Counted from the stretch's first letter, positions 311 to 26,203 are shown. The stretch: 64,000 nucleotides of DNA from Terricaulis sp. (GCA_040080805.1 JBEBHQ010000006.1:380-64379), one strand, 5' to 3'. Numbers and translations are program-made. Notes: generated from the sequence alone by a model not told the origin.

Positions 311-619
311 TCAGGCCCGGCGTCGGCTTGGACGAGCCGGGATTGCTCGGCCAATCTTCACATCGACATGCAGACCCGCCGCCGAAGCCATGTTGACCAG
401 GATGTCGATGCTGAACAGATCGATCTTGCCGCGCACAAGATCGGAAATGCGCGGTTGTGTGACGCCAAACAGTTTCGCGGCCTGGGCCTGGCTCAGCCCG
501 GCGCGCGCTATATGATCGCGCACCGCCATCATCAGCGCCGACCGCAGCTTCATGTTTTCAGCAGCAGCTGGGCTCACCTCGATGGCATCCCAAACGCTTG
601 CATACCTCTTGCCGCTCAT
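311..619 (-). CDS. XRE-family HTH antitoxin (HigA-like)
   Basis: 102-aa ORF with an HTH segment GLSQAQAAKLFGVTQPRISDLVRGK. Its start overlaps the stop of the upstream toxin ORF by 4 nt. Confidence 0.8.
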   Translation of the reverse strand: MSGKRYASVWDAIEVSPAAAENMKLRSALMMAVRDHIARAGLSQAQAAKLFGVTQPRISDLVRGKIDLFSIDILVNMASAAGLHVDVKIGRAIPARPSRRRA

Positions 620-957
620 GACCGCATCTCCTTCACCAGTTCCTTGTACCGCTCAACGGCCAGGGCGATGTCTTCGCGACTGGTCCGTTGCGCCTTCTTC
701 TGAAAGCAGTGCAACACGAAGATCGCCTGCGCGAATTTCGCAACATAGATCACCCGAAACGCCCCGCGCGGCTCGCGTATGCGTATTTCGCGCACGCCCG
801 AGCCGATTGCCTTCATGGGCTTCCAATCGTCCGGGTCATTGCCGTTCTGGACGCGGTCGAGTTGGAAACCGGCTTCGCGCCTGGCCCCGTCGGGAAAAGC
901 GCGAAGGTCGTCCAAAGCGGTTCCCCGAAACTCTATTGGCTTTGCCGCCTTTGGCAC
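616..957 (-). CDS. RelE/ParE-superfamily toxin (HigB / Gp49-like)
   Basis: 113-aa ORF with a GTG start. The C-terminal half (GVREIRIREPRGAFRVIYVAKFAQAIFVLHCFQKK) resembles Gp49/HigB-type toxins. The toxin-first order with a downstream XRE antitoxin is the HigBA arrangement. Confidence 0.8.
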   Translation of the reverse strand: MPKAAKPIEFRGTALDDLRAFPDGARREAGFQLDRVQNGNDPDDWKPMKAIGSGVREIRIREPRGAFRVIYVAKFAQAIFVLHCFQKKAQRTSREDIALAVERYKELVKEMRS

Positions 958-1963: not shown

Positions 1964-3343
1964 TCAGCGGCCAAGCCCGAGCCCGCGGCCCAGTTCGAGC
2001 TCCTTGGCAAGCTGTTTCGGAGCAATGAGTTCAACCGCCTTGGCGCCGCCGCGCTCCAACATTCTGACGCCAACCTGATCGCCGATTCCGATCTCCTTGC
2101 CGGCCTTGACTCCCACCAACGCAACCTCGTTGCCACGCCCGATGATCGCGGTGCGACCCGCGAACAAGTGCTTCACCTCGCGCACTTGCCACTCTTGTTC
2201 TGCGCTGAGAGGGGGATCGAATGTCAGGTCGCGATAGACGAGCCCGTGTTCACGGGCATGCGCAAGGCCGGCGCGGTCCAATTCGCCCGCGCGCAATGCC
2301 TCGCGCGCGCCGTCGCGGAAATAGAATTTGCCGCTTTCGCTGCTCACACCCCAGCCTTCGCGCTCCAGATTCTGGGCGCGTTCGCCAAGGGCCTTTTCCA
2401 CTGCTTCCAGGCGTGGCAGCTCGCGCTTCTGCCCACGCCCGATGTGATCAAGTTCGCGGTCAAGCAGGGTGTCGGCGCGTGCGTGCACCTGCGCTGCCAG
2501 CGACTTCGCCGAAATGATTTCGATCTCGGCGCCGCGCCCTCCGGGTTTCAGCGTCACGATGGATCCCTGCTCCAAACCCTCGATCTCGCGCATGCCGGTG
2601 TTGAGCAACACGCGGCCATGGGAAGGGGACTCCAGCACCACCAGCGCGCGATCGGGATTGTCGCCGCGTGGGCCCAATTCCTTGACCTCGCCGACGACGC
2701 GGCCAAGCTTGGGTTCGTACAGACGCCCTCGCGCCAGCTCACGGCGGATGTCCAAGGGACGCGCCGCCTCCAAGCGCTCCAGCCAGTCGGGTTCAAAGGC
2801 AAGCACGTTGCGCCGGGTCTCCTGCGCCAAGCCCATCGCTTCCAATTCACGCGCCCGGGCGCGCAGAGCGTTGGCAAAGTCCGGCGCTTGACCCCGCCCC
2901 AGCTCTTGCATCCGCACTTCGCGGCTTTCGTTGAGTTCGGGCTCCAACGCCCGGTCCAAGCGATTGAGACTGCGCGCTTGCACTTCCCGGTCGAGCCGCA
3001 GCCGCTCATCGGCGATGGACCGTTCGCCAAGGATGCCGGTGGCCACATCGCGGGCGGCCTCGCGCAGTCCGTGGGACACATAGTCGCGCGGCAGCAGCAG
3101 CTCGGCCCCGTCCCGGCGCACGCCGCGCACGATCACATGCACATGGGGATTGTCGGTGTTGTGGTGGTCGACCGCCACCCAGTCGAGTTCCACGCCGAGA
3201 TCGCGCTCCATTTTTTCCATCGTGCTGCGCGTGAAATCCTTGAGATCGCCGTCCTCGCCGACCATCCGCGCTCCGCTCTCCGGCGCCAGCATCAGCCGGA
3301 AATGGCGCCTATCCTCGACGCTGCAGAAATGGAAACTGGTCAT
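1964..3343 (-). pseudogene. 5'-truncated MOB relaxase (VirD2/DUF3363 type)
   Basis: Homology by memory starts at DRRHFRLMLAPE and includes the relaxase histidine motif HHNTDNPHVHVIVRG plus a long DUF3363-like tail. The roughly 100 N-terminal residues that carry the catalytic Tyr region in full-length relatives are absent. The remaining 5' end abuts the rhs start on the opposite strand. Confidence 0.7.
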
Positions 3344-6300
3344 GGCGCGCAAGAGCACGGTGATCGTCACGCGTTTGATCTCTGCCGCGATCGCCGCGAT
3401 CATCTTGTTAGGTCTAGGCGCTGCCTCAGCGAGCGCTCAAGTCGCGCCGCCCCCGGTTCGGACCGCGACCGACGCCAATGGGGTTGATCTTCTCGACGGA
3501 ACGCTGCGGTTGGCCATGCCGAGCATTTCGGTCGGCCAACCTGGCGCAGGCGGCCTCGTCTACACACGCACCTACGACAGCTCCGCGCTGACATGGCGGG
3601 ACGCTTTCGCCGGCGGCGTCCAACGGACCGGAAACTTCAATCTACGCAGGGCGGTGACGCTATTCGGCCGAACATACGTGTTTGGTCCCCCCGGCGCAGG
3701 ATATCCACCACTAGAAGCTGACGGATCCACGCTTACCTTTGACGCCACAACCAACACCTACACGCTGACGACGCCAGACGGCGCGGTCGCCGTGTACTCC
3801 AAAACACTTGCTGGCACATCACCAACGGTGGCGGACGAAGGCCGCATCGTTTCCTACACCGACCCAGGTGGCGTGATTACTACTTTCACCTACACAGTTT
3901 TGAATAGCGGCACGCAACGCCTTCAATCGATCACCAATAGCCTCGGCTACCAGATCGCTTACCGGTATCAAAACAATGATCCAAGCACAGGCGGACTGAC
4001 TCTGCTTGAGGTGATGGCGATCAACAATTCCATCGATTATTGCGCGCCTAGCGCCAATGGTTGCGCGGGAATGACGCAAACTTGGCCGCGACTCACCTTC
4101 GACGCCGCCACGCCAACGACGGTAACCGACGTGCTCGGTCGCGTCACGCGGTACAGCTATGCTGGTGGCCGCCTTAGCGGGCTGCGCCGGCCGTCAAGCG
4201 CCATTGACAATGTGACATTCGCATATGCGAATGGCAGGGTTGCGAGTGTAAGCAACGGTACAGGCAATTGGACATATGCCTATGTCGATAATCCCGACGA
4301 TACGCGTACGACGACCGTCACCGATCCATTGTCGCATCAGCGCGTCGTCGTCAGCAACCTAGCCACCAACTTGGTGCAAAGCGACCGTGACGCGCTCAAT
4401 CGCACGACCAGCTTTCAGTACGATTCCAGTAGCCGCATCACGCGGGTTACGCATCCCGAAGGCAACAATGCCCAATTCGTCTACGATGGGCGCGGCAACT
4501 TAACGAGCACGACGCACGCAGCGAAGGCCGGCTCGGGCCTCGCCAACATCGTCACCAGCGCATCCTATCCGACGACATGCACAAACCAGCGCACATGCAA
4601 TCAGCCCACGTCCGTGAGCGATGCGCGCGGCAATGTCACCGACTTCACTTACGATCCCACGCACGGGGGCGTTCTAACCATCACCGCGCCCGACCCCGAC
4701 GGGGCGGGGCCAGCGGTGCGCCCGCAAACGCGCATCGCTTACCAACAGCTCAGCGCCTATTACAAGAACAGTTCTGGCGCGATTGTCGCTGGGCCGGCGC
4801 TGTGGCTGCCCACGGAAATCTCCGCGTGCGCCACCACGGCCTCCTGCGCCAATGGCGCGGATGAAACCCGCACCGTTATCGATTACGGCGCCAATGGCGT
4901 CGCCAATAATCGGCTTCCGGTCGCCACGACCGTCCGTGCCGGCAATAATGCTGTCTCCGCCAGCTCCAGCGTCGCCTACGACGCCATCGGCAATCCCACC
5001 GCCGTCGATGGCCCGCTCTCGGGAACCGCCGACACCACGCGCACCTATTACGACGCCGCGCGTCAGGTGATCGGCGTGGTTGGGCCCGATCCGGATGGCG
5101 CGGGCACGGGCGCGCTCAAGCCGCGCGCACAACGCTTCAGCTACAATCTCGATGGCCAGGTCGCCAGCGTGGAGACCGGCACGGTCAACGCCGTCACTGA
5201 CGCTTGGCCCACGACTTTCGCCGCGCTTGAGCAAGCCAATCTCGCTTACGACGCCATCGGGCGCAACACGCGCCGCGATTTCGTGGCGGGCGGCGGCACG
5301 CAGGCGGTGACCCAATACAGCTACGACGCGGCCAATCGTCTGGAATGCGCGGCGCTGCGCATGAACCCGGGCGTGTTCGGGTCCCTGCCCGGCGCGTGCG
5401 CGCTCTCCACGCAAGGCGCGCACGGTCCCGACCGGATCTCCCGCAACACCTACACCAACGCCGATGAGATCGCCTCGGTGACCTCCGGTTACGCCACACC
5501 CTCCCCGATCGTGGAGGCGGCGAGCACCTATTCGGCCAACGGCCTGCGCGCGAGCTTGGCCGATGGGGCGGGCAATGTGTCGGTGTTTGTGTATGACGGC
5601 CACGACCGGCTCTCGCGCCTGCGCTATCCCAACGCGTCAGGCGGGGGAACCAGCACCGCCGACTATGAGGAGTACAGCTACGATGCCGCCGGCAATGTCA
5701 CGCAGACGCGGCGGCGCGATGGGCAGCTGATCGGCGCGAGCTATGATGGGCTGGGGCGCGTGACGCTCATGGATGCGCCGGGCACGGGCAATGATGTCAC
5801 GTACGCCTACGACAATTTCTCGCGCCAGACCGCGGCCGGGTCGCTGACCTTTGCCTATGACCAACTCTCGCGGCTGACCAGCGCAGTGGCTGCCCAGGGG
5901 AGTGTGAGCTATCTTTATGACGCCGCCAGCCGGCGCACGCGGATGACCTGGCCGGATGGATTCTACGTGACCTATGACTATGATCTCACCAATGCGATGA
6001 CCGCCGTGCGCGAGAATGGCGCGGCGGCGGGCGCGGGCGTGCTGGCGGCGTTCACGTACGACAATCTGGGCCGGCGCGTGGCGCTCACGCGCGGCAATGG
6101 CGCGGTGACGAACTATGCTTACGACACGGCGTCGCGCCTCCAAACGCTGACGCAGGATTTGCCGGGGACGAGTTATGATCAGACTTACGGGCTGTCGTAC
6201 AATGCCGCCTCCCAAGTGACGCAGCGCAGCGGCTCGAACGCGGCCTACGATCTCTCCGCTCCAGCCAACGGAAATATCGCCTATGCCGACAATGGCTTGA

Positions 6301-7553
6301 ACCAGTACACGAGCGTCGCGGGGGCCACGCCCAGCTACGACGCGCGTGGCAATCTCACGGGCTATGGGGGCGCGACGTATGCGTATGACATCTTCAACCG
6401 TCTGATCTCCGCGACACCCGCGAGCGGGGCCGCGGCGAGCTTGAGCTACGATTCCGCGGGTCGCTTGGCGCAGGTCGCGGGCGCCTCAACCACGCGCTTC
6501 CTCTACGATGGCGCCGACATGATCGCGGAATACAATAGCTCCAACGCATTGCAGCGCCGCACCGTGCATGGCCCCGGCGTGGACGAACCCTTGGTCTGGT
6601 ACGAGGGCGCCGGCACAGCCGATCGCCGCTATCTGATCACCGATCAGCTCGGCTCCATCGTCGCCGCCAATGGCGACACGATCACGGTCAATGCCTACGA
6701 TGAATATGGGCAACCGGCCGCAGCCAACACCGGCCGCTTCCAATACACCGGCCAGATGTGGCTCGGCGAGGCCCAACTCTATCACTACAAGGCGCGGGCG
6801 TATCATCCAGGCCTCGGCCGCTTCAACCAAAGCGACCCGATCGGCTTCGGCGGCGGCATGAATCTGTACGCCTATGTGGGCAATGATCCGGTGAATTTCA
6901 TTGATCCGTGGGGGCTGCAAGAGTCGCCCCTCCCAGGATGTCACCTCGACGCGTGTCCAAGTGACGACGGCGGCGTCGTTGTCACAGCGTGCCCGACAAA
7001 TTCCATCTGCAGCGCCTTCTGGATCGAGAGATTTTTGGAGAATCTCATCGGTCCCGTCGCGCCGAGCGTCGCTGAATCTGCATTCCGCAGCGTTGGGCAC
7101 GACTACACGGTAACCAACAAAGTCTGTAACGCCGCCTTAGGCCCAGCCGCACAGGCAGAAGCCTTGGGGTCGGCTGCATATCCGGGGCAGAATCCCAATT
7201 CCCAGGTGCAGAGCGGACAATTCTATATTGTGATCGATCCGCGCAACGGCCTGCCAGGCGGCATCGTGCGGTCCACGGTCCGCGATGGCGGATACAGTGT
7301 CACCAATGTCACCACGCCGCTGCATGTGTTCGCTGGTCGGGTAGACCGAACCATTTTTGCAAATGCGACGGGAACTTATGTCACAACCCACGGCGTCGGC
7401 ACGAGCCCTGGCATCATATTGCCGCCGCCCATGGGGGTGAATATTCCTGGTCCGGTTCTGGACGCTATCAACCAGTCACAGGGTCCGGAATTATTCAACG
7501 CCGTGGACGGTGCGTTGGCGGAACGCTTAGCGGAAAGCAATCCCGCATGCTGA
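3342..7553 (+). CDS. Rhs-family polymorphic toxin (YD-repeat shell, RHS core, variable C-terminal tip) with an N-terminal Sec signal peptide
   Basis: 1403 aa counted from the ATG at 3342. The N-terminus MARKSTVIVTRLISAAIAAIILLGLGAASASA-Q looks like a signal peptide. Many YD repeats are present (YxYDxxGNxT, YDxxGR). The core terminus is YHYKARAYHPGLGRFNQSDPIGFGGGMNLYAYVGNDPVNFIDPWGL, ending at 6917, followed by a 211-aa tail. Confidence 0.92.
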   Translation: MARKSTVIVTRLISAAIAAIILLGLGAASASAQVAPPPVRTATDANGVDLLDGTLRLAMPSISVGQPGAGGLVYTRTYDSSALTWRDAFAGGVQRTGNFNLRRAVTLFGRTYVFGPPGAGYPPLEADGSTLTFDATTNTYTLTTPDGAVAVYSKTLAGTSPTVADEGRIVSYTDPGGVITTFTYTVLNSGTQRLQSITNSLGYQIAYRYQNNDPSTGGLTLLEVMAINNSIDYCAPSANGCAGMTQTWPRLTFDAATPTTVTDVLGRVTRYSYAGGRLSGLRRPSSAIDNVTFAYANGRVASVSNGTGNWTYAYVDNPDDTRTTTVTDPLSHQRVVVSNLATNLVQSDRDALNRTTSFQYDSSSRITRVTHPEGNNAQFVYDGRGNLTSTTHAAKAGSGLANIVTSASYPTTCTNQRTCNQPTSVSDARGNVTDFTYDPTHGGVLTITAPDPDGAGPAVRPQTRIAYQQLSAYYKNSSGAIVAGPALWLPTEISACATTASCANGADETRTVIDYGANGVANNRLPVATTVRAGNNAVSASSSVAYDAIGNPTAVDGPLSGTADTTRTYYDAARQVIGVVGPDPDGAGTGALKPRAQRFSYNLDGQVASVETGTVNAVTDAWPTTFAALEQANLAYDAIGRNTRRDFVAGGGTQAVTQYSYDAANRLECAALRMNPGVFGSLPGACALSTQGAHGPDRISRNTYTNADEIASVTSGYATPSPIVEAASTYSANGLRASLADGAGNVSVFVYDGHDRLSRLRYPNASGGGTSTADYEEYSYDAAGNVTQTRRRDGQLIGASYDGLGRVTLMDAPGTGNDVTYAYDNFSRQTAAGSLTFAYDQLSRLTSAVAAQGSVSYLYDAASRRTRMTWPDGFYVTYDYDLTNAMTAVRENGAAAGAGVLAAFTYDNLGRRVALTRGNGAVTNYAYDTASRLQTLTQDLPGTSYDQTYGLSYNAASQVTQRSGSNAAYDLSAPANGNIAYADNGLNQYTSVAGATPSYDARGNLTGYGGATYAYDIFNRLISATPASGAAASLSYDSAGRLAQVAGASTTRFLYDGADMIAEYNSSNALQRRTVHGPGVDEPLVWYEGAGTADRRYLITDQLGSIVAANGDTITVNAYDEYGQPAAANTGRFQYTGQMWLGEAQLYHYKARAYHPGLGRFNQSDPIGFGGGMNLYAYVGNDPVNFIDPWGLQESPLPGCHLDACPSDDGGVVVTACPTNSICSAFWIERFLENLIGPVAPSVAESAFRSVGHDYTVTNKVCNAALGPAAQAEALGSAAYPGQNPNSQVQSGQFYIVIDPRNGLPGGIVRSTVRDGGYSVTNVTTPLHVFAGRVDRTIFANATGTYVTTHGVGTSPGIILPPPMGVNIPGPVLDAINQSQGPELFNAVDGALAERLAESNPAC
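6918..7550 (+). other. Rhs C-terminal toxin tip (CT domain), family not recognised
   Basis: This is the sequence after the DPWGL demarcation motif. It is Cys-rich at the start (GCHLDACPSDDGGVVVTACPTNSICS). It looks less G+C-rich than the repeat core. Confidence 0.7.
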
Positions 7554-8032
7554 ACCGTCGCGCCCTCTTGGTCTCGCCGCTTGCCACGTTTGCGTTGGCC
7601 AGCTGCGGGCCAGGTTCGTTCGAATTGTACAAGGTCCCGCTGCGCGAGGCGGACATTGCCTTGCCGCCGGAGCGAACCGCCGATCTGTTGCGGGCGTTGC
7701 GAGCATTCGCGCGTGAGAACGGATTTCGCTTCGCTGTTCGGGAGTTTCGGTCAAGGATCGGAACAAGTCACGCGTTTGAGATGCGCCGGCGCGATCTGTG
7801 GATTGCGGGCGTCAACCCGCTCAAGGATACGCCGCACTACAATCCCCCGTTGGATCCGGATGGGAACTTGATCATGGAGGTTGATCAGGGCACATTCGCG
7901 GTCACTTTCGTACGCGGTGATCGGGACCCCGAACCGGCCACACTTGATGCAATGGTTCAGGCCTTTATTGCCACCATGGAACGGGTGCCGGGCGTGACCG
8001 TCATGATTACGCGCGCGCATTCGCCATATTAA
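7547..8032 (+). CDS. Putative cognate immunity lipoprotein for the Rhs tip
   Basis: 161-aa ORF whose start overlaps the rhs stop (ATGCTGA). It has a signal peptide with lipobox LASC. Its position directly after a polymorphic-toxin tip is the canonical immunity slot. Confidence 0.6.
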   Translation: MLNRRALLVSPLATFALASCGPGSFELYKVPLREADIALPPERTADLLRALRAFARENGFRFAVREFRSRIGTSHAFEMRRRDLWIAGVNPLKDTPHYNPPLDPDGNLIMEVDQGTFAVTFVRGDRDPEPATLDAMVQAFIATMERVPGVTVMITRAHSPY

Positions 8033-8050
8033 GCGGTGACGCAACATTCT

Positions 8051-9078
8051 TACAACGCGGCCAATCGTCTGGAATGCGCGGCGCTGCGCATATGCCGATG
8101 AGATCGCCTCGGTGACCTCCGGTTACGCCACACCCTCCCCGATCGTGGAGGCGGCGAGCACCTATTCGGCCAACGGCCTGCGCGCGAGCTTGGCCGATGG
8201 GGCGGGCAATGTGTCGGTGTTTGTGTATGACGGCCACGACCGGCTCTCGCGCCTGCGCTATCCCAACGCGTCAGGCGGGGGAACCAGCGCCACCGACTAT
8301 GAGGAGTACAGCTACGATGCCGCCGGCAATGTCACGCAGACGCGCCGCCGCGATGGGCAGCTGATCGGCGCGGCGTACGATGCGCTGGGGCGCGTGACGC
8401 TGATGGATGCGCCGGGGACGGCGAATGACGTGACCTATGCCTACGACAATTTCTCGCGGCAGACCGGCGTGGGCTCGCTCAGTTTTGCCTACGACCAGCT
8501 GTCGCGGCTGACCAGCGCTGTGGCGGCGCAGGGGAGCGTGAGCTATCTTTATGACGCGGCTTCCCGGCGCACGCGGATGACCTGGCCGGATGGGTTCTAT
8601 GTGACCACCGATTACGACCTCACCAACGCGGTGACCGCCATGCGCGAGAATGGCGCGGCGTCGGGCGCGGGCGTGCTGGCGAGTTTCGCGTATGACAATC
8701 TCGGGCGTCGTGTGTCGCTCACGCGCGGCAATGGCGCGGTGACGGCTTATGCGTACGATGCGGCCTCGCGGCTGGCGAGCTTGACGCAGGATTTGCCGGG
8801 CACGGCTTTCGATCAGACTTATGGGCTGAGCTACAATGCAGCTTCCCAAGTGACGCAGCGCACCGGCGCGAACGCGGCCTACGATCTGCCCGCGCCGGCC
8901 AACGGAACCACGGCCTATGCCGATAATGGCTTGAACCAGTACACCTCCGTTGCGGGCGCCGCGCCGAGCTACGATGCGCGCGGCAATCTCACGGCGCTAG
9001 GCGGGGCGACGTATGGGTACGACATCTTCAATCGTCTGATCTCGGCAACGCCGGCGGGCGGGGCCGCGACGACGCTGC
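8051..9078 (+). pseudogene. Orphan rhs core fragment (duplicate of 5322-6444, internally deleted, no core end or tip)
   Basis: 8051-8091 matches 5322-5362, and 8092-9078 matches 5458-6444. About 95 nt (5363-5457) are missing, which breaks the frame (stop after ..AALRICR). The track ORF 8112..9332 restarts at an internal GTG. Homology stops well before the RHS core end. Confidence 0.85.
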
Positions 9079-9398
9079 GCGTGACGAAATTCCACCCGGA
9101 CCCGGCCGATCGCAGGCGGCCGCAATATTTCGAGGTTGGCGGCTATCGATTTTCGCAGTTGGGTGCTGCACCCACGCCGGCCCTCCACCGAACGCTTCAC
9201 TCCGGGGGTCCCGACCTCACCGGCCAGTGCGTGAAAATCGCGTTCAACGAACGTAATGAGATTCTCTGGCTTGGCATTCGCCGTTCCGGTTGCGCGGGCG
9301 AGCCGGTGGCCGCAGATATCGGCCCGCCATAATCCAGCCTGAAGCGGGCACAGCTGTCGAAGGGGGTCGCTCCAGGTGTGTATTTGGGACCCAGTTCC

Positions 9399-9485
9399 AA
9401 CCAGCGCCACCGACTATGAGGAGTACAGCTACGATGTCGCCGGCAATGTCACCCAGACGCGCCGCCGCGACGGGCAGCTGATCGG
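9399..9485 (+). repeat. Third short rhs fragment (87 nt)
   Basis: Matches 8282-8368 with 3 mismatches, and matches 5648-5734. It is cut on its right side at the inferred IS66 left end. Confidence 0.8.
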
Positions 9486-9593: not shown

Positions 9594-9952
9594 ATGGACA
9601 TCATTCTCGGCAAGGAGCGCAGGCGCTGGTCGGAGGACCAGAAGCGAGAGATCGTGGCTGAGACGTTTGTCGAGGGCGCGACGGTCACTGATGTGGCGCG
9701 CAGTACGGCGCCAGTCGGAGCATGGTGTTCTCATGGCGCAAGCGCTTTCGGGGCGAGCCCTGGGCGCGACCTCAGCCTGCTTTCATGCCGGTGATGCTCG
9801 CGCCACCCTCGCCGGAGGCGCCGCCGGCAAACGTAGCGTCCGATGCGCCCACGATTGATGTCGCCTTCGCCTGCGGCGCGCGCCTGCGGGTGGCCGGCGC
9901 GGTTGATCCGGCGTTGGTCGCAGGCATCGTCAAGGCGCTGACGCGCGCATGA
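9594..9952 (+). pseudogene. tnpA: IS66 tnpA (orf1) with a 1-nt frameshift
   Basis: MDIILGKERRRWSEDQKREIVAETFVEGATVTDVAR (frame of 9594) continues as QYGASRSMVFSWRKRF... in the frame of ORF 9722..9952. One C appears to be missing in the GCGCGC run near 9701. Confidence 0.8.
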
Positions 9953-10308
9953 TCCCGATTCCGCAAGGCGTCCGTGTTTGGCTCGCCGCCGGCCACACCG
10001 ACATGCGCAAGGGCTTCGACGGACTGGCGCTCGCGGTGCAGGAGCGGCTGAAGATGGACCCGCATACCGGACAGCTATTTGTTTTTCGCGGCAGGCGCGG
10101 CGATCTGATTAAGGTGCTCTGGCACGATGGTCAGGGTCTGTGCCTATTTTCGAAGCGGCTGGAGCGCGGACGATTCGTGTGGCCGCAAATAAACATTTCT
10201 AGCGCCGAGGGGAGCGTGCATCTGACGCCGGCGCAGCTCGGCTATTTGCTCGAAGGCATCGATTGGCGTCTGCCGCAACGGACCTGGACGCCGCAAGCCG
10301 CCGGATGA
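9949..10308 (+). CDS. tnpB: IS66 family insertion sequence element accessory protein TnpB (orf2)
   Basis: 119 aa. MIPIPQGVRVWLAAGHTDMRKGFDGLALAVQ...LFVFRGRRGDLIKVLWHDGQGLCLFSKRLERGRFVWP is the conserved IS66 Orf2 signature. ATGA overlap with tnpA. Confidence 0.92.
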   Translation: MIPIPQGVRVWLAAGHTDMRKGFDGLALAVQERLKMDPHTGQLFVFRGRRGDLIKVLWHDGQGLCLFSKRLERGRFVWPQINISSAEGSVHLTPAQLGYLLEGIDWRLPQRTWTPQAAG

Positions 10309-10407
10309 AGCGACAAATTGAATCAGCACGCACGCAGGGGCGCCTCAAAGCCTGCGAATTGTGCTTCTATCGCGGTCGTGACAGCTGATCGCTCCGACGA
10401 GGTGGAG

Positions 10408-11110
10408 ATGCTGAAGCGCCGGCTGGCCGAGCGCGACCGCGAGCTTTTAGAAGCGCACGCCGCCCGCATCGCCGCCGAAGCTGAGAAATCCAGCGTCGAA
10501 GCTTTGGTCGCGCATCTGCAACTCGAGATCGCCAAGCTCCGCCACGACAAATTCGGCCAATCCTCCGAGCGACGCTCGCATCTGCTTGAACAGCTTGAAT
10601 TGGAGCTCGCCGATCTTGAGGGCGATGTTGCGCAGGATGCGATTGCCGCCGAGGTCGCCGCAACCAGAGCTGCGGGTCATGCGATCACGCCGGCGCAAGC
10701 CAAGCGTAAACCGGCGCGTGGGCCCCTGCCGGAGCATTTGCCGCGCGAGCGCGTTGTGATCGTGTCGCCTTCTTCTTGTCCGTGCTGCGGGTCGGACAAG
10801 CTGGCCAAGCTCGGCGAGGACGTGACCGAGACGCTGGAAGTGATCCCGCGACAATGGAAAGTGATCCAGCACGTGCGCGAGAAATGGAGCTGCCGCGCGT
10901 GCGAGAAGATCACGCAACCGCCGGCGCCCTTCCATGTCATTGCGCGCGGACGCGCCGGCGCGAGCTTGCTGGCGATGATCCTCGCCTCGAAATACGCCCA
11001 ACACCTGCCGCTGACGCGTCAAGGCGAAATCTACGCGCGCGAAGGCGTCGAAATTGATGTCTCGACCATGGCCGATTGGGTGGGCGCGTGCGCGGCGACG
11101 CTCTACCCAC
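10408..11110 (+). pseudogene. tnpC: IS66 family transposase TnpC, N-terminal part only
   Basis: Leucine-zipper-like N-terminus, KLRHDKFGQSSER, and the zinc-finger region CPCCGSDKLAKLGEDVTETLEVIPRQWKVIQHVREKWSCRAC. The reading frame loses sense at 11111, where the IS3 terminus begins. The DDE domain is absent. Confidence 0.85.
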
Positions 11111-11174
11111 TGAGGCGCCCCCCGTTTGGTCCCGCACTTGAAAGGAGAGTCCTTGATCGAGGAAAGGCTCTCAC

Positions 11175-11438
11175 ATGCGGAAATCCCGTTTCACCGAGGA
11201 ACAGATCATCGCCATCCTGGCCGAGCAGGAGCGCGGATTAACCACGGCGCAGGTGTGCCGCAAACACGGATTGAGTCCGGCGACGTTTTACAAATGGAAG
11301 GCCAAGTTCGGCGGCCTGGACGTTTCCGAGGCGCGCCGGCTCAAACTGATCGAGGACGAGAACCGGCGGCTGAAGAAGCTGTTGGCCGAGGCGGTTCTGG
11401 ACAATGCGGCGCTGAAGGACATGCTCGGAAAAAACTAA
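11175..11438 (+). CDS. IS3 family transposase OrfA (HTH)
   Basis: 87 aa. [72 protein letters not shown] is typical IS3/IS407 OrfA. Confidence 0.92.
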
Positions 11439-12322
11439 TCACGCCGGCGGCGAAGAAGGCGGCGGCGGTGAAGGCCGTCGCCGTCCACGGCCTCTCCCAG
11501 AGGCGCGCATGCGCGCTCGTCGGCGTTGACCCCAAAACTGTTCGCAAGCCTGAAGTCCGCGACAACCCGGAAATTCGGGTGCGGATGGTCGCCATTGCCG
11601 AACAACGCCGCCGCTTCGGCTATCGCCGCATCGGCATCATGCTCGCGCGCGAAGGCATCGTGATGAACCACAAGAAGTTGTACCGCCTCTACAGCGAGGA
11701 GCGCCTGACCGTGCGCAAGCGAAAAGGCCGCAAACGCGCGCTGGGATCAAGGAATCCGATGCCCGCCTCCAGCGCGCCGAACGCGCGCTGGAGTCTCGAC
11801 TTCGTCTCCGACACGTTCGGCGCCTCGCGCCGCTTTCGCATCCTCGCCGTGGTCGACGATTGCACGCGCGAGAGCATCGCCATGATCGCCGACACTTCGA
11901 TCGGCGGCGTGCGCGTCGCCCGTGAGCTCGACGCCATGATCCGGCTTTACGGCAAACCGGCGGCGATCGTCTCCGACAACGGCACGGAATTCACCTCGCG
12001 CGCGATGCTCGAATGGCAGGGCCGCGAGCATGTCGCCTGGCATTATATCGAGCCGGGAAAACCCCAGCAGAACGCGTATTCGGAAAGCTTCAACGGCCGC
12101 TTGCGCGACGAATGTCTGAACGAAACCTGCTTTGACAGCCTCGATCACGCCAGACGCACGCTGGCGCGCTGGCGCTACGATTACAATTACGTGCGCCCGC
12201 ACTCGGCCCACAACGGCATGCCCCCGGCGTCGGCGCGCGCTGGGCCCGTGGGCGGGGCGTCGAGCCATGGTGGGGCAAACTCGCCGCCCCGCCCACTACC
12301 CTCCAGCCAAGGATCGGGTTAA
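11426..12322 (+). CDS. IS3 family transposase OrfB (DDE integrase core), expressed as OrfAB by programmed -1 frameshift
   Basis: The -1 frame relative to orfA is open from the slippery run GGAAAAAAC (A6 at 11429-11434). rve-type motifs are present: [48 protein letters not shown]. Confidence 0.88.
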
Positions 12323-12371
12323 GAAAGAAAAGACTCTGCTTCCCGATGAGGGACCGTAAGGGGGCGCCTCA

Positions 12372-12538
12372 GACTCAATCCGTGTTTGCGGCACACCTGC
12401 GCCGTGGTTAATCCGCGCTCCTGCTCGGCCAGGATGGCGATGATCTGTTCCTCGGTGAAACGGGATTTCCGCATGTGAGAGCCTTTCCTCGATCAAGGAC
12501 TCTCCTTTCAAGTGCGGGACCAAACGGGGGGCGCCTCA
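12372..12538 (-). mobile_element. Inverted partial copy of the IS3 left end (167 bp)
   Basis: Appears to be an exact reverse complement of 11111-11277 (IRL plus the first part of orfA). It abuts the right terminus of the complete copy directly. Confidence 0.9.
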
Positions 12539-12650: not shown

Positions 12651-12727
<77 letters not shown>

Positions 12728-20378: not shown

Positions 20379-22142
20379 ATGCGCCCATTTCACACCCTCC
20401 CCGCGGCGCTCTGCGCCACCCTCGGCTTTGGCGCCGCCGCACCCATGGCTTGGGCTGACTCCCCGGTTGTCATTGACGGCGCTGACGAGGACGTCCGCGA
20501 AGCGATCCTCGACTTGTTGCCGGACCGCGATCAGCCGGAAACGCTGTTCGAAGCCGAACGTATCGCCGAAGAGGCCGCGGCTCGCGCCATGGTCTGGCTG
20601 CGCTCGGAGGGCTATTACGCCGCGCAAGTGACGCCGGAGGCCAACGAAACACCAGCGCTAGCGCGCTTGGTGATCGCGCCGGGCGTGCGTTTTCGCTTTG
20701 CGGCGGCGCGGCTCACCTTCGACGGCGGCGCGCCCGATCAGGCGACAGCGGATGCGGCGCGCCAAGCAATCGGAGCTGTACGTGAAGGCGCGCCCGCACG
20801 CGCGGCGGACGTGCTCGGCGCACAGGCTGCGGCGCTCGCGAGCTTGCAAAAGGCCGGCTACGCCGACGCGGAGGCTGGTGAGCGCCGCGTCGTCGTCGAT
20901 CACGCCCTGGCCCGGGTCACGCCGGAGTTTCGCTTCAGCGTGGGCGAGCGCGCGCGCTTGGGCGATGTGCGTGTGGAGCCGGCGGCGGCGTTTCGGCCAA
21001 GCTTCGTGGACAGCCTCCAGAATTGGACCAGGGGCGATGCCTATTCACCGCAAGCGTTGTTGCGCCTGCGCCGCGATTTGAGTTCAACCGGCGCCGTGTC
21101 ACGCGTCACCACCAGGCTTGATCCTCCGGGTGGGGATGGGCTGAGCGACGTCGTGCTTGAGGTCGAGCCAGCGCGTCGCAACGCCTACGAATTCGGCCTG
21201 GGCTATTCAACAACCGAAGGCGCCGGCGTCGAGGCGCAATGGACACGGCGCAATCTGAGCGGCCGGGCCGATCCGCTGACGATCGCCACAACGCTCGGTG
21301 AAACACAACAAAACATCACCGCAACGCTAATGCGCCCGCACGCGGCGGGCCTTGGACATGCCGTCAGTTTCGGCGCCTCGGCCGAGCGTGAAACGTCGGA
21401 AGCTTTTACGCGCCAAGGCGTGGCGCTGCATGCCTCCGTGGACGCGGCGCGCCGCCTGCGCACCAGCCGCTCTTACGGCGTGAATTTATCCGCGGACAAT
21501 TACGACGATCTAGCCGGAGGCGTCTCCAATGCAATCGTCCTCTCCAGCTTTTTCAACTTGCGCACAGATTCCACCGAATTCTCGCTCGACCCGCGCAATG
21601 GCTCGATCGCCGAGTTCCGCATTGAGCCTTCGGTGTCAACCGGCGACGAGACCTTGGGCTTCGTGCGCGCCTCGGCGGAAGGGCGCCTCTATCATTCCTT
21701 CGGCGAAGGTGATCGCCTGACTTTGGCCGCGCGCGCGCGCACAGGTTGGCTTGCGCCTGTCGCCGGCGACGCGGACGATGCGCCGCCGGATCGGCGTTTC
21801 TACGCTGGCGGCGGCGGCTCGGTGCGCGGCTATGGCTACAACACGATCTACCCCGCCGAGCGCGACTTGGCCGGGCTCTCCCCGGGCGGACAAGGCTTGT
21901 TCGAGGGCGCCGTTGAAGCGCGCTGGCGCTTCGGCGAGCGCATTGGCGCGGCTGTCTTCGTCGATGGCGGCAACGCCTTTGACGATTGGAGCGATGCGGC
22001 CGACCTTCGTTGGGGGGTTGGCGTCGGCGCGCGCTACGATCTCGGCTTTGCGCCGCTGCGCATCGACATCGCCTTTCCGCTCGACGACAGCGAGACCACC
22101 GATTCCTATGCGCTCTATATCAGCCTCGGACAGGCGTTCTGA
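20379..22142 (+). CDS. tamA: Autotransporter assembly complex protein TamA (Omp85 family)
   Basis: 587 aa with a signal peptide, POTRA-like N-terminal region and a C-terminal Omp85 barrel ending ..ISLGQAF. Followed by tamB with a 1-nt overlap. Confidence 0.85.
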   Translation: MRPFHTLPAALCATLGFGAAAPMAWADSPVVIDGADEDVREAILDLLPDRDQPETLFEAERIAEEAAARAMVWLRSEGYYAAQVTPEANETPALARLVIAPGVRFRFAAARLTFDGGAPDQATADAARQAIGAVREGAPARAADVLGAQAAALASLQKAGYADAEAGERRVVVDHALARVTPEFRFSVGERARLGDVRVEPAAAFRPSFVDSLQNWTRGDAYSPQALLRLRRDLSSTGAVSRVTTRLDPPGGDGLSDVVLEVEPARRNAYEFGLGYSTTEGAGVEAQWTRRNLSGRADPLTIATTLGETQQNITATLMRPHAAGLGHAVSFGASAERETSEAFTRQGVALHASVDAARRLRTSRSYGVNLSADNYDDLAGGVSNAIVLSSFFNLRTDSTEFSLDPRNGSIAEFRIEPSVSTGDETLGFVRASAEGRLYHSFGEGDRLTLAARARTGWLAPVAGDADDAPPDRRFYAGGGGSVRGYGYNTIYPAERDLAGLSPGGQGLFEGAVEARWRFGERIGAAVFVDGGNAFDDWSDAADLRWGVGVGARYDLGFAPLRIDIAFPLDDSETTDSYALYISLGQAF

Positions 22143-25100: not shown

Positions 25101-26203
25101 AGGACAAACTGACCGGAATCACGTTGACCAATCTCGACGCCCGCATCGCGCTCGACGAGCGCGGGGTTACGCTGGAGCGGTTCACGGCGGGGGGACCACA
25201 CGGCGGCACATTGACCGCGACAGGCGGCAGCGCCAATCCGCGCGAAGGCCGCATCGCCGTCACTGTTCAGGACATGCGCGTCGCCGATCGCCCGGACGCG
25301 CGCGCGCGCGCCAGCGGCGAGCTTACGCTCGCTTGGGAAGGCCTGCATTCAACGCTCACGGGCGCGCTCACAATCGAAGAGGCCGGTATCGATGTCGCCG
25401 CAAGCCCCAATGCCGGAATCGCCACGCTCGACGTCGTCGAGATCAATCGGCCGGACCAGGAAGACGACATCGCAAGCGATGCGCCTCCACGTCGCAACGG
25501 CTCGACCGACATCGACGTGCGCATCACCGCGCCTGGGCGCGTGTTTACGCGTGGGCGCGGCATTGATGCGGAATGGTCGCTCGACCTGCGCCTCGACGGC
25601 ACCGCGCGCGTCCCGCGCCTCTACGGCGACGCGCGCGCCATCCGCGGCACGCTGGCGCTGTCGGGTCAGCCGTTTGAGATCGAAGACGCGCGCATCTTCT
25701 TCAACGGCGACCCCCTCGACGCCCAGATCGACATGACCGCCGTACGCGATACCGCCGACCTCACCGCGCGCGCGCGGCTGACCGGCACGGCGCGCGATCC
25801 GGAACTCGCCTTTTCCAGCAATCCAGCGCTCCCGGAAGACGAAATCCTGCCGCAAATATTGTTTGGCCGCTCGGTCGAGGACCTTTCCGCCTTCGAAGCG
25901 GCGCAACTCGCAGCAAGCCTCGCCGCGCTCTCAGGCCGCGCCTCGCTCGATCTGGTGGACGCCGCGCGCGCAGCGGCGGGGCTCGACCGCTTCAATGTCC
26001 GCCAAGACCAGGACGGCGGTTTTTTGGTCGCCGGCGGAATCTATCTGACGCGCGATGTCTACGTCGAACTGGCGCGCACCGGCCTGGGGCAAGCACAAAC
26101 ACGGGTGGAATGGGCCGTCCGCCCGCGCCTGCTGCTCGTCACCAGCTTCCTCGGCAACGGCGACCAGCGGGTTTCGCTGCGTTGGCGGCGCGAAAGCGAT
26201 TGA
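22142..26203 (+). CDS. tamB: Translocation and assembly module protein TamB
   Basis: About 1353 aa from ATG 22142 (TGATG overlap with tamA). N-terminal TM anchor, long beta-rich repetitive body, and a DUF490-like C-terminus (GGIYLTRDVYVEL...SLRWRRE). Confidence 0.85.
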   Translation: MAEAPKRRGRWLVPAIGAALAAGGAAWTLGPGAAWIVDNLADGQRVWRLGRIEIDGVSGAWAGALRAERVSIADDEGVWLDAQDLSLNWRPQDVVFGALRIDRARARRITLLRQPVLLDPKSPGGVSVDVQIEALQIEQLSLAEPVLGDAADFSAVLSLAVRDKALAAIDLDLRRTDSDADRALVQYRTGADFALSVDIEGAPQGVFARALGVADQSVRATADGDGDPYIGEASYQASIGNAQLLGGAARWSAAQWAFDAQARLDVLPILATLARRIGPSLSLNAHGASAGAFSTHAETPFIALDLSGALDENHALDGPAQFAATTHRLSDIARESPFPLGAARLEGELRRARGTTAIQATLDANDVNAFGRSVSFHGPVNVALTPDRFTLDGDVRASEIAPALFAHARLRTELAYDRTRRRFSLGSADLSGDALSLNAQGWVNRGEGEFSGEWRVRRLDALLGPVTGQAAGRWRAFSEPNGGARIWTTTIAGAGERIGGAPEIVPQLLGASPRLDARLTYENHGLTISHARIDGAQLRAGASGRIVRGIAELALEASARGPLSLGGARIEGAADATGRLTGRFVRPTLSAHAIFTSFSAGGVIVTQPIIDLSLAPTARSYGGRADVTGVAFGQPLNAAADLALADNALALTNLDSRVGAMQARGAATLAPAGASAQLTVSGQLDGLFPGVSGRVSGELALSPEALALDAQLADVRVGELRIRGATLAASGPLDAIAARFDLRGRLRQAPLAFAGTATLANAAGDADLAIEGRGTLAGAAVFTRAPMRMKWEQSSLDTSINVALGDGIVQAHWRERGRALSGSAQIDDAPLAPLAAIWGERAEGRIDGRAQLANLSGGLSGGADLTLTGARFAGRQSGRLNMHIVGRLDPDRLAATIDASSTEGLVARFEANAPVVTSTAPIRVALTPERRGNATWSVRGPAESLWAAARLPDQSLEGQLSGEGELQFGAGHLSGDGSVELTEARFEDKLTGITLTNLDARIALDERGVTLERFTAGGPHGGTLTATGGSANPREGRIAVTVQDMRVADRPDARARASGELTLAWEGLHSTLTGALTIEEAGIDVAASPNAGIATLDVVEINRPDQEDDIASDAPPRRNGSTDIDVRITAPGRVFTRGRGIDAEWSLDLRLDGTARVPRLYGDARAIRGTLALSGQPFEIEDARIFFNGDPLDAQIDMTAVRDTADLTARARLTGTARDPELAFSSNPALPEDEILPQILFGRSVEDLSAFEAAQLAASLAALSGRASLDLVDAARAAAGLDRFNVRQDQDGGFLVAGGIYLTRDVYVELARTGLGQAQTRVEWAVRPRLLLVTSFLGNGDQRVSLRWRRESD

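Follow-up and report, generated by a model that had tools for sequence, protein, structure and literature searches.

A predicted START/SRPBCC-fold toxin tip on a Sec-signal Rhs protein of Terricaulis sp. and its lipoprotein immunity candidate

An intact module of an Rhs gene and a lipoprotein gene lies in the stretch of Terricaulis sp. DNA analysed here (64,000 nucleotides, referred to as the window). We consider it fairly probable that the pair forms an intact Sec-dependent, non-T6SS Rhs toxin–immunity module, in which an envelope-acting tip of START fold is blocked by the co-translated lipoprotein. The toxin domain is new, the class of Rhs toxins with a Sec signal has been catalogued before, and the locus offers a good experimental lead.

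Leader, shell and cassette junction of the Rhs protein

In the ORF listing of the window a single frame is open from 3150 to 7553, and translation from the ATG at 3342 (3342–7553, + strand) gives an Rhs protein of 1403 aa with the N-terminus MARKSTVIVTRLISAAIAAIILLGLGAASASA-QVAPPP. Support for the start at 3342 comes from P0104 and P0099, full-length homologues that open with the same kind of leader as the window protein and then run into the same 'PPP..D..GVDL' segment. As read from the sequence, the leader (aa 1–32; 3342–3437, + strand) is a predicted Sec-type signal peptide, composed of the n-region MARKSTVIVTR, a hydrophobic core and an A-S-A/Q cleavage motif, with Kyte-Doolittle means of 2.0–2.45 over aa 7–30. 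The protein thus has the predicted cleavable leader with n-, h- and c-regions, and lacks any other secretion leader domain, as in the Sec-dependent class of Zhang et al. 2012. An earlier sequence-only reading had proposed that a Sec signal takes the place of a PAAR- or VgrG-binding N-terminus, and indeed the leader is of the Sec type and no such domain was found in Pfam or NCBIfam. That reading also implied that such a leader is odd on an Rhs protein and called the delivery route unclear; the leader is less odd than this, since Zhang et al. 2012 (PMC3482391) list the combination of signal peptide and RHS repeats among their delivery classes, while the doubt about delivery in a diderm stands. 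For a protein of more than 150 kDa in a diderm, a Sec leader leaves both outer-membrane passage and target-cell entry unexplained. Experimental examples of the class are WapA of Bacillus subtilis and Streptococcus suis, both monoderms in which Sec export suffices to reach the surface, whereas the window host is evidently a diderm, so called because tamA/tamB and lipoprotein genes occur in the window.

The N-terminal region and YD/RHS-repeat shell (aa 33–1118; 3438–6695, + strand) were delimited by Pfam and NCBIfam matches and by homology to P0104, which aligns with the window protein end to end (40% identity over aa 29–1388). The protein matches Pfam RHS_repeat (PF05593) in 9 stretches with E = 3e-41 and YD_repeat (TIGR01643) with E = 7.5e-29. 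The Rhs-associated core that follows (aa 1119–1192; 6696–6917, + strand) covers the full NCBIfam model Rhs_assc_core (TIGR03696, positions 1–76, E = 3.6e-22), which confirmed the earlier placement of the core end at ..DPVNFIDPWGL, nt 6917. By analogy with studied Rhs proteins, its ..DPIGF..DPWGL segment, with 18 aa between the two motifs, is a predicted autoproteolytic site that would release the tip.

Downstream of the core lies a tail of 211 aa (6918–7550) that had no match in Pfam, NCBIfam or PDB by sequence search, and that consists of two parts, a 55-aa linker and a 156-aa toxin domain. The linker, a Cys-rich pre-toxin segment with 4 Cys (aa 1193–1247; 6918–7082, + strand), was recognised by comparison with P0005, in which it is 82% identical over 60 aa and precedes an unrelated tip rich in Gly; other proteins that bear the toxin domain do not conserve it. 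As judged from these alignments, the linker belongs to the scaffold lineage and not to the toxin cassette, and because P0005 has the same linker but another tip, the cassette junction is placed about 55 aa past DPWGL rather than at DPWGL. Tips differ between close scaffolds, as P0005 and the window protein illustrate, and sister cassettes carried by this Rhs lineage (L011 and P0005) combine Gly-rich membrane-type tips with membrane or exported immunity genes. The repeats, the DPxGL core with a variable tip and the co-occurring immunity-candidate gene downstream are those of an Rhs/YD-repeat polymorphic toxin. The tip (G+C 0.59, GC3 0.65) and the immunity ORF (0.61, 0.70) do lie below the repeat core (0.66, 0.80), as had been claimed in support of a swapped cassette, but the Rhs gene is just as low as the tip in its 5' third (0.59, 0.67).

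Family and predicted fold of the toxin domain

The toxin domain (aa 1248–1403 plus stop; 7083–7553, + strand) has no sequence match in Pfam, NCBIfam, PHROGs or PDB. An exhaustive search returned 252 clusters of relatives at E ≤ 1e-3, in which the domain is always C-terminal, and on sequence comparison it represents an unnamed, fairly widespread family of polymorphic-toxin tips. The idea that the tip recurs on other scaffolds was borne out: besides Rhs proteins, it is carried by a TPS protein (P0108), a DUF637/CdiA-like protein (L006), a Tc-like SpvB-TcdB-RHS protein (P0114) and phage portal proteins (L008, P0049 and P0052), and it is also found in orphan arrays, where further tip/immunity cassettes adjoin it (L007 and L011). 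In P0108 the domain is joined via a low-complexity linker, and no cytoplasm-entry domain was recognisable ahead of it.

An AF2 model of the domain, built from a 43-sequence alignment, reached a pLDDT of 96.2 and a pTM of 0.89. Foldseek against PDB returned dozens of entries, uniformly SRPBCC with probability 1.00, among them the AHSA1-like 3q63, 1xn6, 3otl and 1xfs, TcmN ARO/CYC (2rer), Bet v 1 and PYL, with 3q63 as the best match (E = 5e-5). The modelled domain thus has the START/SRPBCC helix-grip fold, in which a curved antiparallel sheet wraps a long C-terminal helix, and it shares the topology β-α-β5-long α with the AHSA1-like/SRPBCC proteins (these four and 3q6a) and the TcmN aromatase/cyclase. 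The TM scores of 0.5–0.58 across the SRPBCC matches indicate fold and not function, as SRPBCC proteins have many different roles. Sequence identity to these proteins is 8–15%, with no match at the profile level, and they are cytoplasmic proteins, not secreted toxins, that lack the disulfide and the signature of the tip family. Consistently, none of the 43 members matched the SRPBCC models of Pfam (Polyketide_cyc, AHSA1, START, Bet_v_1 and others) even at E ≤ 1, or any other Pfam family, and a PDB profile search with the toxin domain gave chance-level FlgI matches only. The earlier description of the tip as unassignable therefore holds for named families but not for the fold, which AlphaFold and Foldseek now assign to START/SRPBCC.

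With residue 1 of the core numbering set at Rhs aa 1248, the family alignment shows H6, P34, G60, N75, T77, H81, G85, R89, N130 and D142 to be invariant, and the window copy keeps every one of them. Periodicity, read from the family alignment and the secondary structure of the AF2 model, places conserved residues at i, i+2 on the strands and at i+4 on the long C-terminal helix (N130-G134-F138-D142). His6, Tyr8, Asn75, Thr77, Arg89, Asn130 and Asp142 would form the conserved face of the strands and helix, with His81 in a nearby loop, so that the invariant residues appear to lie on one face, fitting that of a ligand cavity. The polar invariant set, which is unusually polar, is accompanied by several invariant glycines, and the signature HDY..N.T..H..R..N..D together with the disulfide pattern sets the toxin family apart.

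The tail does contain the Cys, His and GTSPG strings to which the sequence-only reading drew attention, but neither catalytic interpretation is supported. Cys15 is paired with a C-terminal Cys (..PGC) in 45 of 78 members and, where the C-terminal Cys is lacking, with a second Cys 5–8 residues downstream in about 25 of 78, while 2 of 78 have neither. Because Cys15 covaries with a second Cys, is absent in these two members and, by strand periodicity, faces away from the conserved face, we read it as a disulfide partner, and C15 and C156 probably form a disulfide. The same covariation and absence, together with a fold that is helix-grip and not papain, speak against a papain-like Cys/His pair. 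Of the string 'THGVGTSPG' the family conserves just the two glycines of 'THGxG', G104 and G106, and the Ser position varies (N/A/G/T), so GTSPG is not a GxSxG motif. Paired Cys residues are typical of proteins folded outside the cytoplasm, and this pattern counts for action in the envelope.

The immunity candidate and the proposed mode of action

The immunity candidate is a lipoprotein of 161 aa (7547–8032, + strand) with a LASC lipobox (aa 17–20, Cys20). Its start shares 7 nt with the toxin stop (ATGCTGA), where the sequence reads CCGCATGCTGAACC; both the overlap and the lipobox had been reported before and were confirmed, and the same overlapping arrangement of stop and start occurs at four other loci. 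At each of the 12 non-redundant loci whose sequence extends beyond the tip, the adjacent gene, which lies 0–10 nt from the tip or overlaps it, encodes a protein of 144–161 aa with a lipobox or an N-terminal membrane anchor. At nine of them, the window and eight others, this protein belongs to one family homologous to the window ORF, which upholds the earlier view of an Rhs polymorphic toxin whose cognate immunity candidate is an exported lipoprotein. The lipobox, LASC in the window, is AGC, ASC or LGC in homologues and gives way to an uncleaved TM anchor in distant ones, and the lipoprotein and TM-anchored clades are related (hhalign 97.8%, P = 9e-13). At the remaining 3 loci the partner of the toxin comes from another lipoprotein family (hhalign 42%), and immunity pairing is therefore not one-to-one; the earlier reading had asked whether the tip always sits beside a homologue of the lipoprotein, which holds for 9 of 12 loci, and a small exported neighbour is present at all 12. 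The AF2 model of the 161-aa protein (pLDDT 83.5) had no convincing structural relative in a structure search.

The most likely reading is an envelope-acting toxin on a lipidic target. The 1403-aa precursor would be exported by Sec, as its leader suggests; the YD-repeat shell would enclose the C-terminal region, as in solved Rhs structures, and the aspartyl motif of the core (..DPWGL) would cut the tip free. The active part would be the 156-aa helix-grip domain of START/SRPBCC type, stabilised by its disulfide, whose putative cavity may bind a hydrophobic envelope molecule and act on its polar head group, with an isoprenoid carrier lipid or lipid II, a phospholipid, lipid A or a quinone as candidate ligands. 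The site of action would be the periplasmic face of the inner membrane in the target, or another part of its envelope, and the co-translated lipoprotein is expected to bind and block the toxin there, protecting the producer. An attack on a rival's envelope is suggested because the tip is always followed by an exported immunity candidate. Action on the envelope or periplasm had been proposed from one lipobox; the exported partners at 12 of 12 loci extend this to the whole family, and these sequence data strongly indicate the periplasm or envelope as the compartment of action. They point moderately to weakly to a lipidic substrate and catalysis, and catalysis appears more likely than mere sequestration.

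Colicin M/Cmi and the T7SS pair TelC/TipC provide a working analogy, in which a lipid-linked envelope precursor is attacked from the periplasmic or outer side. Colicin M and TelC cleave lipid II, are active only outside the cytoplasm and are countered by membrane-anchored or lipoprotein immunity. A toxin of the colicin M/TelC type was nevertheless rejected, as there is no similarity in sequence or fold, the colicin M fold and the lipocone being unrelated to helix-grip.

Alternative readings, locus and related systems

The domain might act without catalysis, as a stoichiometric 'lipid thief' at the outer face of the inner membrane that extracts or sequesters an essential hydrophobic molecule, such as undecaprenyl phosphate, a quinone or a phospholipid, or as one that misroutes lipids between membranes. 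START/SRPBCC proteins usually bind and carry hydrophobic ligands (2026 review, PMC13525633), and the fold assigned by Foldseek and the exported immunity candidates are equally compatible with this; however, the conserved face presents at least 8 invariant polar residues, more than simple carriers need, and a toxin of which few copies are delivered would gain little from one-to-one sequestration. These two arguments are not decisive, and we regard the thief as unlikely. Entry into the target cytoplasm, where the domain could be an RNase or bind ribosomes or acyl carriers, is very unlikely. There are claims of RNase activity for some Bet v 1/PR-10 proteins. In TA-like pairs, members with a START fold have been called toxins, and ribosome or acyl-carrier binding was once proposed for RatA/PasT and Rv0910, but these toxin labels have themselves been revised (PMC13525633). 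Many Rhs and CdiA tips are cytoplasmic nucleases, as is generally known (Zhang et al. 2012), whereas here each of the 12 immunity candidates is exported or anchored in a membrane, the Cys residues come in pairs and a cytoplasm-entry domain is not recognisable. The least probable reading is that the C-terminal domain is no toxin but a ligand- or receptor-binding module for adhesion or the sensing of hydrophobic signals, with a lipoprotein partner that is not an antidote. Helix-grip is above all a binding fold and the tip is known here from sequence and model alone, but the domain follows the DPxGL release site, has been exchanged between Rhs, TPS, Tc-like and portal scaffolds, occurs in orphan arrays with other tip/immunity cassettes and always has a small adjacent gene, and because of these features together we take it as a polymorphic-toxin tip.

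The surroundings of the module raise the further possibility of a non-functional relic, an Rhs gene in, or recombined against, a mobilisable element, with its delivery partners lost and expression or secretion gone. The gene adjoins a 5'-truncated RlxS relaxase, the two ORFs overlapping head-to-head at 3342–3403, and no secretion genes lie nearby. Downstream are a tip-less orphan Rhs core fragment (8033–9150, + strand), a copy of main-gene nt ~5304–6470 (direct repeats D1 and D3; 88–97% nt identity, 90% aa identity over 322 aa, RHS_repeat E = 7e-28) that has lost its own core end and tip, and a third, very short core fragment (9399–9485, + strand; direct repeat family D2; 95–97% identity to 5648–5734 and 8282–8368), followed by an IS66 element that an IS3 element interrupts, and then by tRNA-Arg. 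We read the surroundings as a decaying integrated element next to tRNA-Arg in which the module sits, and with IS elements and truncated genes around it, the module is not certain to be expressed in this strain. Yet the ORFs are intact over 1403 and 161 codons with every invariant family residue kept, stop and start overlap as in four other loci, and the high GC3 of the core argues for a maintained coding frame, so we give the relic a low probability. A scan of about 40 ORFs spread over the 64-kb window found no T6SS, PAAR, VgrG or eag gene, in agreement with the absence of T6SS context noted before; the ORFs examined in the rest of the window are housekeeping genes, such as argG, kup, tamAB, obg, proBA, the atp operon, sucAB-lpd and priA.

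The Sec-dependent ('T2SS-class') RHS toxins (PMC3482391) resemble the window protein in their signal peptide, RHS repeats, DPxGL core and variable tip, as well as in the adjacent immunity gene and the orphan fragments downstream, but the tip family of the window is not in the Pfam-derived models of that catalogue. The T6SS effectors RhsA, Tse5 and RhsP (PMC8636562) likewise have a YD-repeat cage, a C-terminal aspartyl autoproteolysis motif and an encapsulated tip. A T6SS-delivered effector was rejected: the window protein has a Sec leader instead of a PAAR, prePAAR/TM or VgrG-binding N-terminus, and no T6SS, vgrG or Eag chaperone genes are linked to it in the 64 kb. A 'START-domain-like helix-grip' tip has been noted in passing for Cystatin-type lipoprotein toxins of Bacteroidota (Burroughs, Nicastro & Aravind 2025, PMC12419801; mentioned again in PMC13525633), and PMC12419801 gives no family definition, sequences or experiments for it. 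Compared by description, at the level of fold class, it agrees with our toxin tip, whereas the Cystatin-type toxins differ in their lipobox and Cystatin-like scaffold, their phylum and the jelly-roll or BamE-like folds of their immunity proteins. Finally, the portal-borne members L008, P0049 and P0052, with an adjacent terminase gene and an immunity-like gene downstream, recall the MuF-type phage-head toxins that are thought to be packaged into capsids (PMC3482391); their partner, however, is the portal itself or a short protein with a 'KYxPDQPRVPAG..GGQWT' motif rather than MuF, and the window copy is borne on an Rhs protein, not on a phage.

An Rhs toxin gene with a swapped C-terminal cassette

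The reading frame containing the Rhs gene is open from 3150 to 7553 (+), and its 1403-aa product starts at the ATG at 3342, as given in the ORF list. This start is supported because two full-length homologous proteins, P0104 (40% identity over aa 29-1388) and P0099, begin directly with a similar leader and have a 'PPP..D..GVDL..G' segment in common. Read from the sequence, aa 1-32 are organised like a Sec signal peptide, with all three regions and an A-S-A|Q site. The protein carries nine RHS repeats (Pfam, E=3e-41), as well as YD repeats and a complete Rhs-associated core at aa 1119-1192 that ends in ..DPVNFIDPWGL (NCBIfam). The 211-aa tail after this motif had no match in Pfam, NCBIfam or PDB sequences. 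The next ORF, a candidate immunity gene (7547-8032 (+), 161 aa), begins within the stop codon of the Rhs gene (..GCATGCTGA..) and has the lipobox LASC. The sequence-only reading had described the Rhs protein, the end of its core, the 211-aa tail and the overlapping lipobox ORF, and all of these points proved correct against the ORF list, Pfam and NCBIfam.

The first ~55 residues of the tail (QESPLPGCHLDACPSDDGGVVVTACPTNSICSAFWIERFLENL.., with four Cys) share 82% identity with the same stretch of P0005, a sister Rhs protein that matches at 75% identity across the final 360 residues of the core and then continues into an unrelated glycine-rich tip. The linkers in other carriers of the toxin domain are unrelated to the one in the window. 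As the linker is common to P0005 and differs elsewhere, the conserved 'GHDY' near aa 1248 marks where the swapped cassette begins, and residues of the tip (aa 1248-1403) are numbered from aa 1248. The same reading had claimed a lower G+C content for tip and immunity ORF, which holds against the repeat core (GC3 of 0.65-0.70 vs 0.80) but does not set them apart from the first third of the gene, where GC3 is also low (0.67). Along the Rhs gene, the tip-like value of 0.67 covers 3342-4500, and the value of 0.80, like that of an orphan Rhs copy downstream, covers 4501-6917. This pattern suggests that recombination with Rhs copies already in the genome has homogenised the middle of the gene.

The Rhs module sits in an island ending at tRNA-Arg(CCG). 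At the left end of the island lies a HigB/HigA-like pair (311-957 (-)) of a Gp49/HigB-like toxin and an HTH_37/HigA-like antitoxin, followed by two HTH_17 (excisionase-type) genes (1049-1297 and 1545-1907) and an RlxS/DUF3363-type relaxase (1964-3403 (-)) that lacks ~100 N-terminal residues, its profile match running from model position 125. The relaxase remnant overlaps the start codon region of the Rhs gene head-to-head (3342-3403). Apparently, the Rhs module either entered a mobilisable element by insertion or recombined against one. The orphan copy, a tip-less Rhs core (8033-~9150 (+)), begins one base past the immunity stop codon, shows 88-97% nucleotide identity to nt ~5304-6470 of the main gene with a 95-nt deletion, and its frame enters unrelated sequence after '..LISATPAGGAATTL'. 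It is followed by a third Rhs fragment of 87 nt, also tip-less (9399-9485 (+)), and by an IS66-family element (TnpA-like HTH, TnpB and TnpC) with an inserted IS3 (9594-12538). The IS66 DDE transposase is interrupted by the IS3-family element after ~57 of 284 profile positions, and the remaining IS66 part is absent; the ends of the IS3 element are 167-nt perfect inverted repeats (11111-11277 and 12372-12538). The tRNA-Arg(CCG) gene (12651-12727 (-)) comes after these IS elements. Rhs loci are typically found in such surroundings, which leave room for doubt about whether the module is still in use.

The toxin-domain family and its predicted fold

Word-indexed search strongly under-reported the tip family, with one relative found by sequence and eight with a profile query, whereas an exhaustive HMMER search, run against 1.84 billion representatives, brought up 252 clusters at the E<=1e-3 cutoff, 84 of them at E<=1e-10. 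These matches place the tip in a genuine and sizeable family that has no name, comprises at least 250 sequence clusters and lacks a Pfam, NCBIfam or PHROGs model. Not one of 43 aligned members matched a Pfam model even at E<=1, and PHROGs gave no match to the toxin domain. Keratin and FlgI, the sole tip matches in the Pfam, NCBIfam, PHROGs and PDB (phmmer/hmmsearch) searches, were at chance level and were rejected. An IMG/VR scan gave no relatives, and the BFVD viral fold library gave nothing at E<=1e-3. In line with the sequence-only reading, in which the tip could not be matched to any toxin family, the Pfam, NCBIfam, PHROGs and PDB searches gave no hit to a characterised toxin domain.

In 149 of the best HMMER matches, the domain is C-terminal or ends a few residues short of the C-terminus. 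At least 45 of these 149 carriers are Rhs proteins, the full-length ones with Sec leaders. Other carriers include a TPS-domain protein (P0108), a DUF637 CdiA-like protein (locus L006), an SpvB-TcdB-RHS protein of 3053 aa (P0114), a giant protein of 6665 aa (P0066) and phage portal proteins adjoining a terminase gene (L008, P0049, P0052). With a 10-sequence alignment as query, the tip family was found in six genome loci and five metagenome loci. At L010 (20-10504), from an 'Anaerolinea' MAG (Chloroflexota), a protein of >3494 aa ends in the toxin domain and a homologous TM-anchored immunity protein comes next; the family therefore reaches beyond Pseudomonadota.

AlphaFold2 modelling of the tip on the 43-member alignment gave a pLDDT of 96.2 and a pTM of 0.89, with the predicted element order β1-α1-β2-β3-β4-β5-β6-long αC. 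The top Foldseek matches in PDB were all START/SRPBCC helix-grip proteins (probability 1.00, E down to 5e-5, TM 0.5-0.58), among them the AHSA1-like proteins of unknown function 3q63, 1xn6, 3otl, 1xfs and 3q6a, and further the TcmN aromatase/cyclase, Bet v 1-type allergens and PYL receptors. According to this model, the tip is a START/SRPBCC domain at the level of fold, with sequence identities of 8-15% and no sequence profile joining the families. Ten positions are invariant in the alignment (H6, P34, G60, N75, T77, H81, G85, R89, N130 and D142), and Y8, C15, V50, V62, G70, T102, G104, G106, G134, P135 and F138 are nearly so.

This conservation bears on the catalytic motifs proposed from the sequence. 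A papain-like pair had been suggested between the Cys of NKVC (C15) and the His of TTPLHVF (H81), but the fold is not papain-like and C15 is paired as in a disulfide. C15 occurs with the C-terminal ..PGC Cys and no further Cys in 45 of 78 members, and with a Cys 5-8 residues downstream, the C-terminal Cys being absent, in ~25; two members have no Cys at all. It lies on strand β1, on the opposite face to the conserved H6/Y8/N12/V14. C15 was rejected as a nucleophile, since the pairing pattern and strand face fit a disulfide instead. H81, being invariant, may well be functional. The GTSPG string, noted as GxSxG-like, is not a GxSxG elbow, as only the glycines of 'THGxG' are conserved in the alignment.

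Exported candidate immunity proteins and the proposed activity

DNA past the tip was available for 12 non-redundant loci (the window, L001/L011, L002/L003, L004, L005, L006, L007, L008, L010, L012, L013 and L015). In all 12, the next gene overlaps the tip stop codon or begins a few bases past it, and encodes a 144-161-aa product that has a lipobox or is anchored by an uncleaved hydrophobic N-terminus. Nine of these proteins form one family, in which a lipoprotein clade including that of the window aligns with a TM-anchored clade (hhalign 97.8%, P=9e-13), bearing out the expectation that the lipoprotein co-occurs with homologous tips. The lipoproteins of the other three loci could not be linked to this family (hhalign 42%); they represent another ~150-aa lipoprotein family, with no detectable relation to the first, after a subgroup of the toxin family (L012:505-981, L013:806-1252, L015:3667-4137). 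Apparently, at least two families of exported proteins serve to neutralise toxins of this one fold. The closest match to the window lipoprotein in the protein collection has 91% identity. Its AlphaFold2 models, built on a three-sequence alignment and of moderate quality, reached a pLDDT of 83.5 at best and 58-69 in the other four, and Foldseek found no convincing relative of the immunity model, the best match being the spermine synthase N-domain (E=8e-4, TM 0.48), with ribosomal S10-like α+β folds ranked after it.

Exported antidotes are expected for toxins acting outside the cytoplasm, and the candidate antidotes found here argue for such action. The envelope is further indicated by the paired Cys residues and the Cys-rich linker, by the TPS-borne member (P0108), which has no recognisable cytoplasm-entry domain, and by the cassettes of L011 and P0005 on the same Rhs lineage, where the tips are glycine-rich and of a membrane type and the immunity genes are for membrane or exported proteins. 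We strongly infer that the tip acts in the periplasm or envelope. P0005 and L011 (69-1379, 1376-1891, 2025-3277 and 5657-7198) represent sister Rhs scaffolds and an orphan array with other tips; these are glycine-rich and hydrophobic (glycine-zipper-like), and the paired immunity genes encode multi-TM or signal-peptide proteins. Most of the cargo of this Sec-leader Rhs lineage may act on the envelope.

Residue periodicity, read from the alignment and the AlphaFold2 secondary structure, places conserved residues at i, i+2 on strands (H6/Y8, G60/V62, N75/T77, V87/R89/I91 and T102/G104/G106) and at i, i+4 on the C-terminal helix (N130/G134/F138/D142). The conserved face would correspond to the ligand-cavity face of the helix-grip fold. 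Two to three His together with Arg, Asp, two Asn, Tyr and Thr would line the cavity, the glycines giving space. Catalytic START relatives include polyketide cyclases and the catalytic domains of Rieske oxygenases with a 2-His-1-carboxylate site, which the polar lining of the tip presumably resembles; the tip may hold a 2-His/1-Asp metal site. In our best reading, the tip would be an enzyme that holds an envelope lipid, or a precursor linked to a lipid, by its hydrophobic portion and acts at the head group; which molecule is targeted is a guess. The main alternative is pure sequestration of a lipid instead of catalysis; the predicted lining appears far more polar than a plain lipid carrier requires. 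For the enzymatic reading, colicin M/Cmi and TelC/TipC offer an analogy, as these toxins work exclusively outside the cytoplasm and are held in check by immunity proteins anchored in the membrane, although the colicin M and TelC folds are unrelated to that of the tip.

The most likely reading, which we regard as reasonably probable, is a START-fold toxin that acts on the envelope, is borne by an Rhs scaffold exported through Sec and has a lipoprotein as its antidote. A wider proposal is put forward tentatively, as something we would sooner doubt than assert: the tip would be the founding member of a family of START-fold enzymes that act as toxins by destroying or modifying, from the periplasmic side, an envelope intermediate that is a lipid or is linked to one. 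Its vehicles would be an Rhs lineage that depends on Sec, needs no T6SS and is specialised for envelope-acting cargo, and in other bacteria phage or GTA portal proteins, which would inject the toxin together with DNA.

Novelty of the tip and routes of delivery

The system is of the Rhs polymorphic toxin-immunity kind and of its Sec-dependent class, and its Rhs protein, immunity gene, orphans and mobile-element context are ordinary. The tip is a new domain variant from an uncatalogued family, whose fold has been noted for polymorphic toxins once before. A START-like fold as a polymorphic-toxin tip was mentioned in a single sentence of a comparative genomics study (Burroughs et al. 2025, PMC12419801), for Bacteroidota and on another scaffold. 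A 2026 START review (PMC13525633) echoes this mention, neither source giving experiments, and our literature search on SRPBCC/START interbacterial effectors found nothing beyond it. Toxin-immunity modules themselves are well known, and unknown Rhs tips are where new antibacterial chemistries turn up. For this tip family, the START/helix-grip model is very confident, the polar signature is fixed and the pairing with exported immunity proteins is consistent. If the tip does attack a lipidic envelope component, it would represent a new toxin mechanism and possibly a new envelope vulnerability, combining lipid chemistry and the START fold without shown precedent in interbacterial toxins. Its value as a lead for a new toxin mechanism is moderate to high, while that of the overall system type is low.

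Zhang et al. 2012 (PMC3482391) list 'Signal peptide + RHS repeats' as one of the delivery classes (T2SS/Sec), and the Rhs architecture described here is therefore already known. No T6SS, PAAR, VgrG or Eag genes were present among ~40 ORFs scanned in the 64-kb window, in agreement with the earlier observation that no T6SS cluster is visible there, and the Rhs protein has no PAAR-type domain at its N-terminus. Overall, the observation of the sequence-only reading was confirmed and its interpretation supported in part. Beyond 12.8 kb, the window holds housekeeping genes throughout. Among these, 12 kb downstream, are tamA (Omp85/POTRA) and tamB (1405 aa) at 20379-26203 (+), which serve housekeeping outer-membrane assembly with no sign of a link to the Rhs gene; their presence confirms a diderm host. 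Our literature search found no experimental study on how Sec-leader Rhs proteins exit a diderm cell or enter a target, and the family is a handle on how such proteins reach their targets without a T6SS.

It is likewise a handle on the purpose of toxin domains fused to phage portal proteins. The toxin domain forms the C-terminus of HK97-type portal proteins at L008 (8558-10522, Hyphomicrobium MAG) and L009 and in P0049 and P0052. The portal-fusion proteins match Pfam Phage_portal (E=9e-89), and their genes lie directly after the large-terminase gene and are followed by an immunity homologue. This arrangement suggests that the toxin is delivered by a capsid- or GTA-borne route. Many short members of the family carry a 'KY(S/N)PDQPRVPAG..GGQWT' motif, followed by a Gly-rich linker and the toxin domain.
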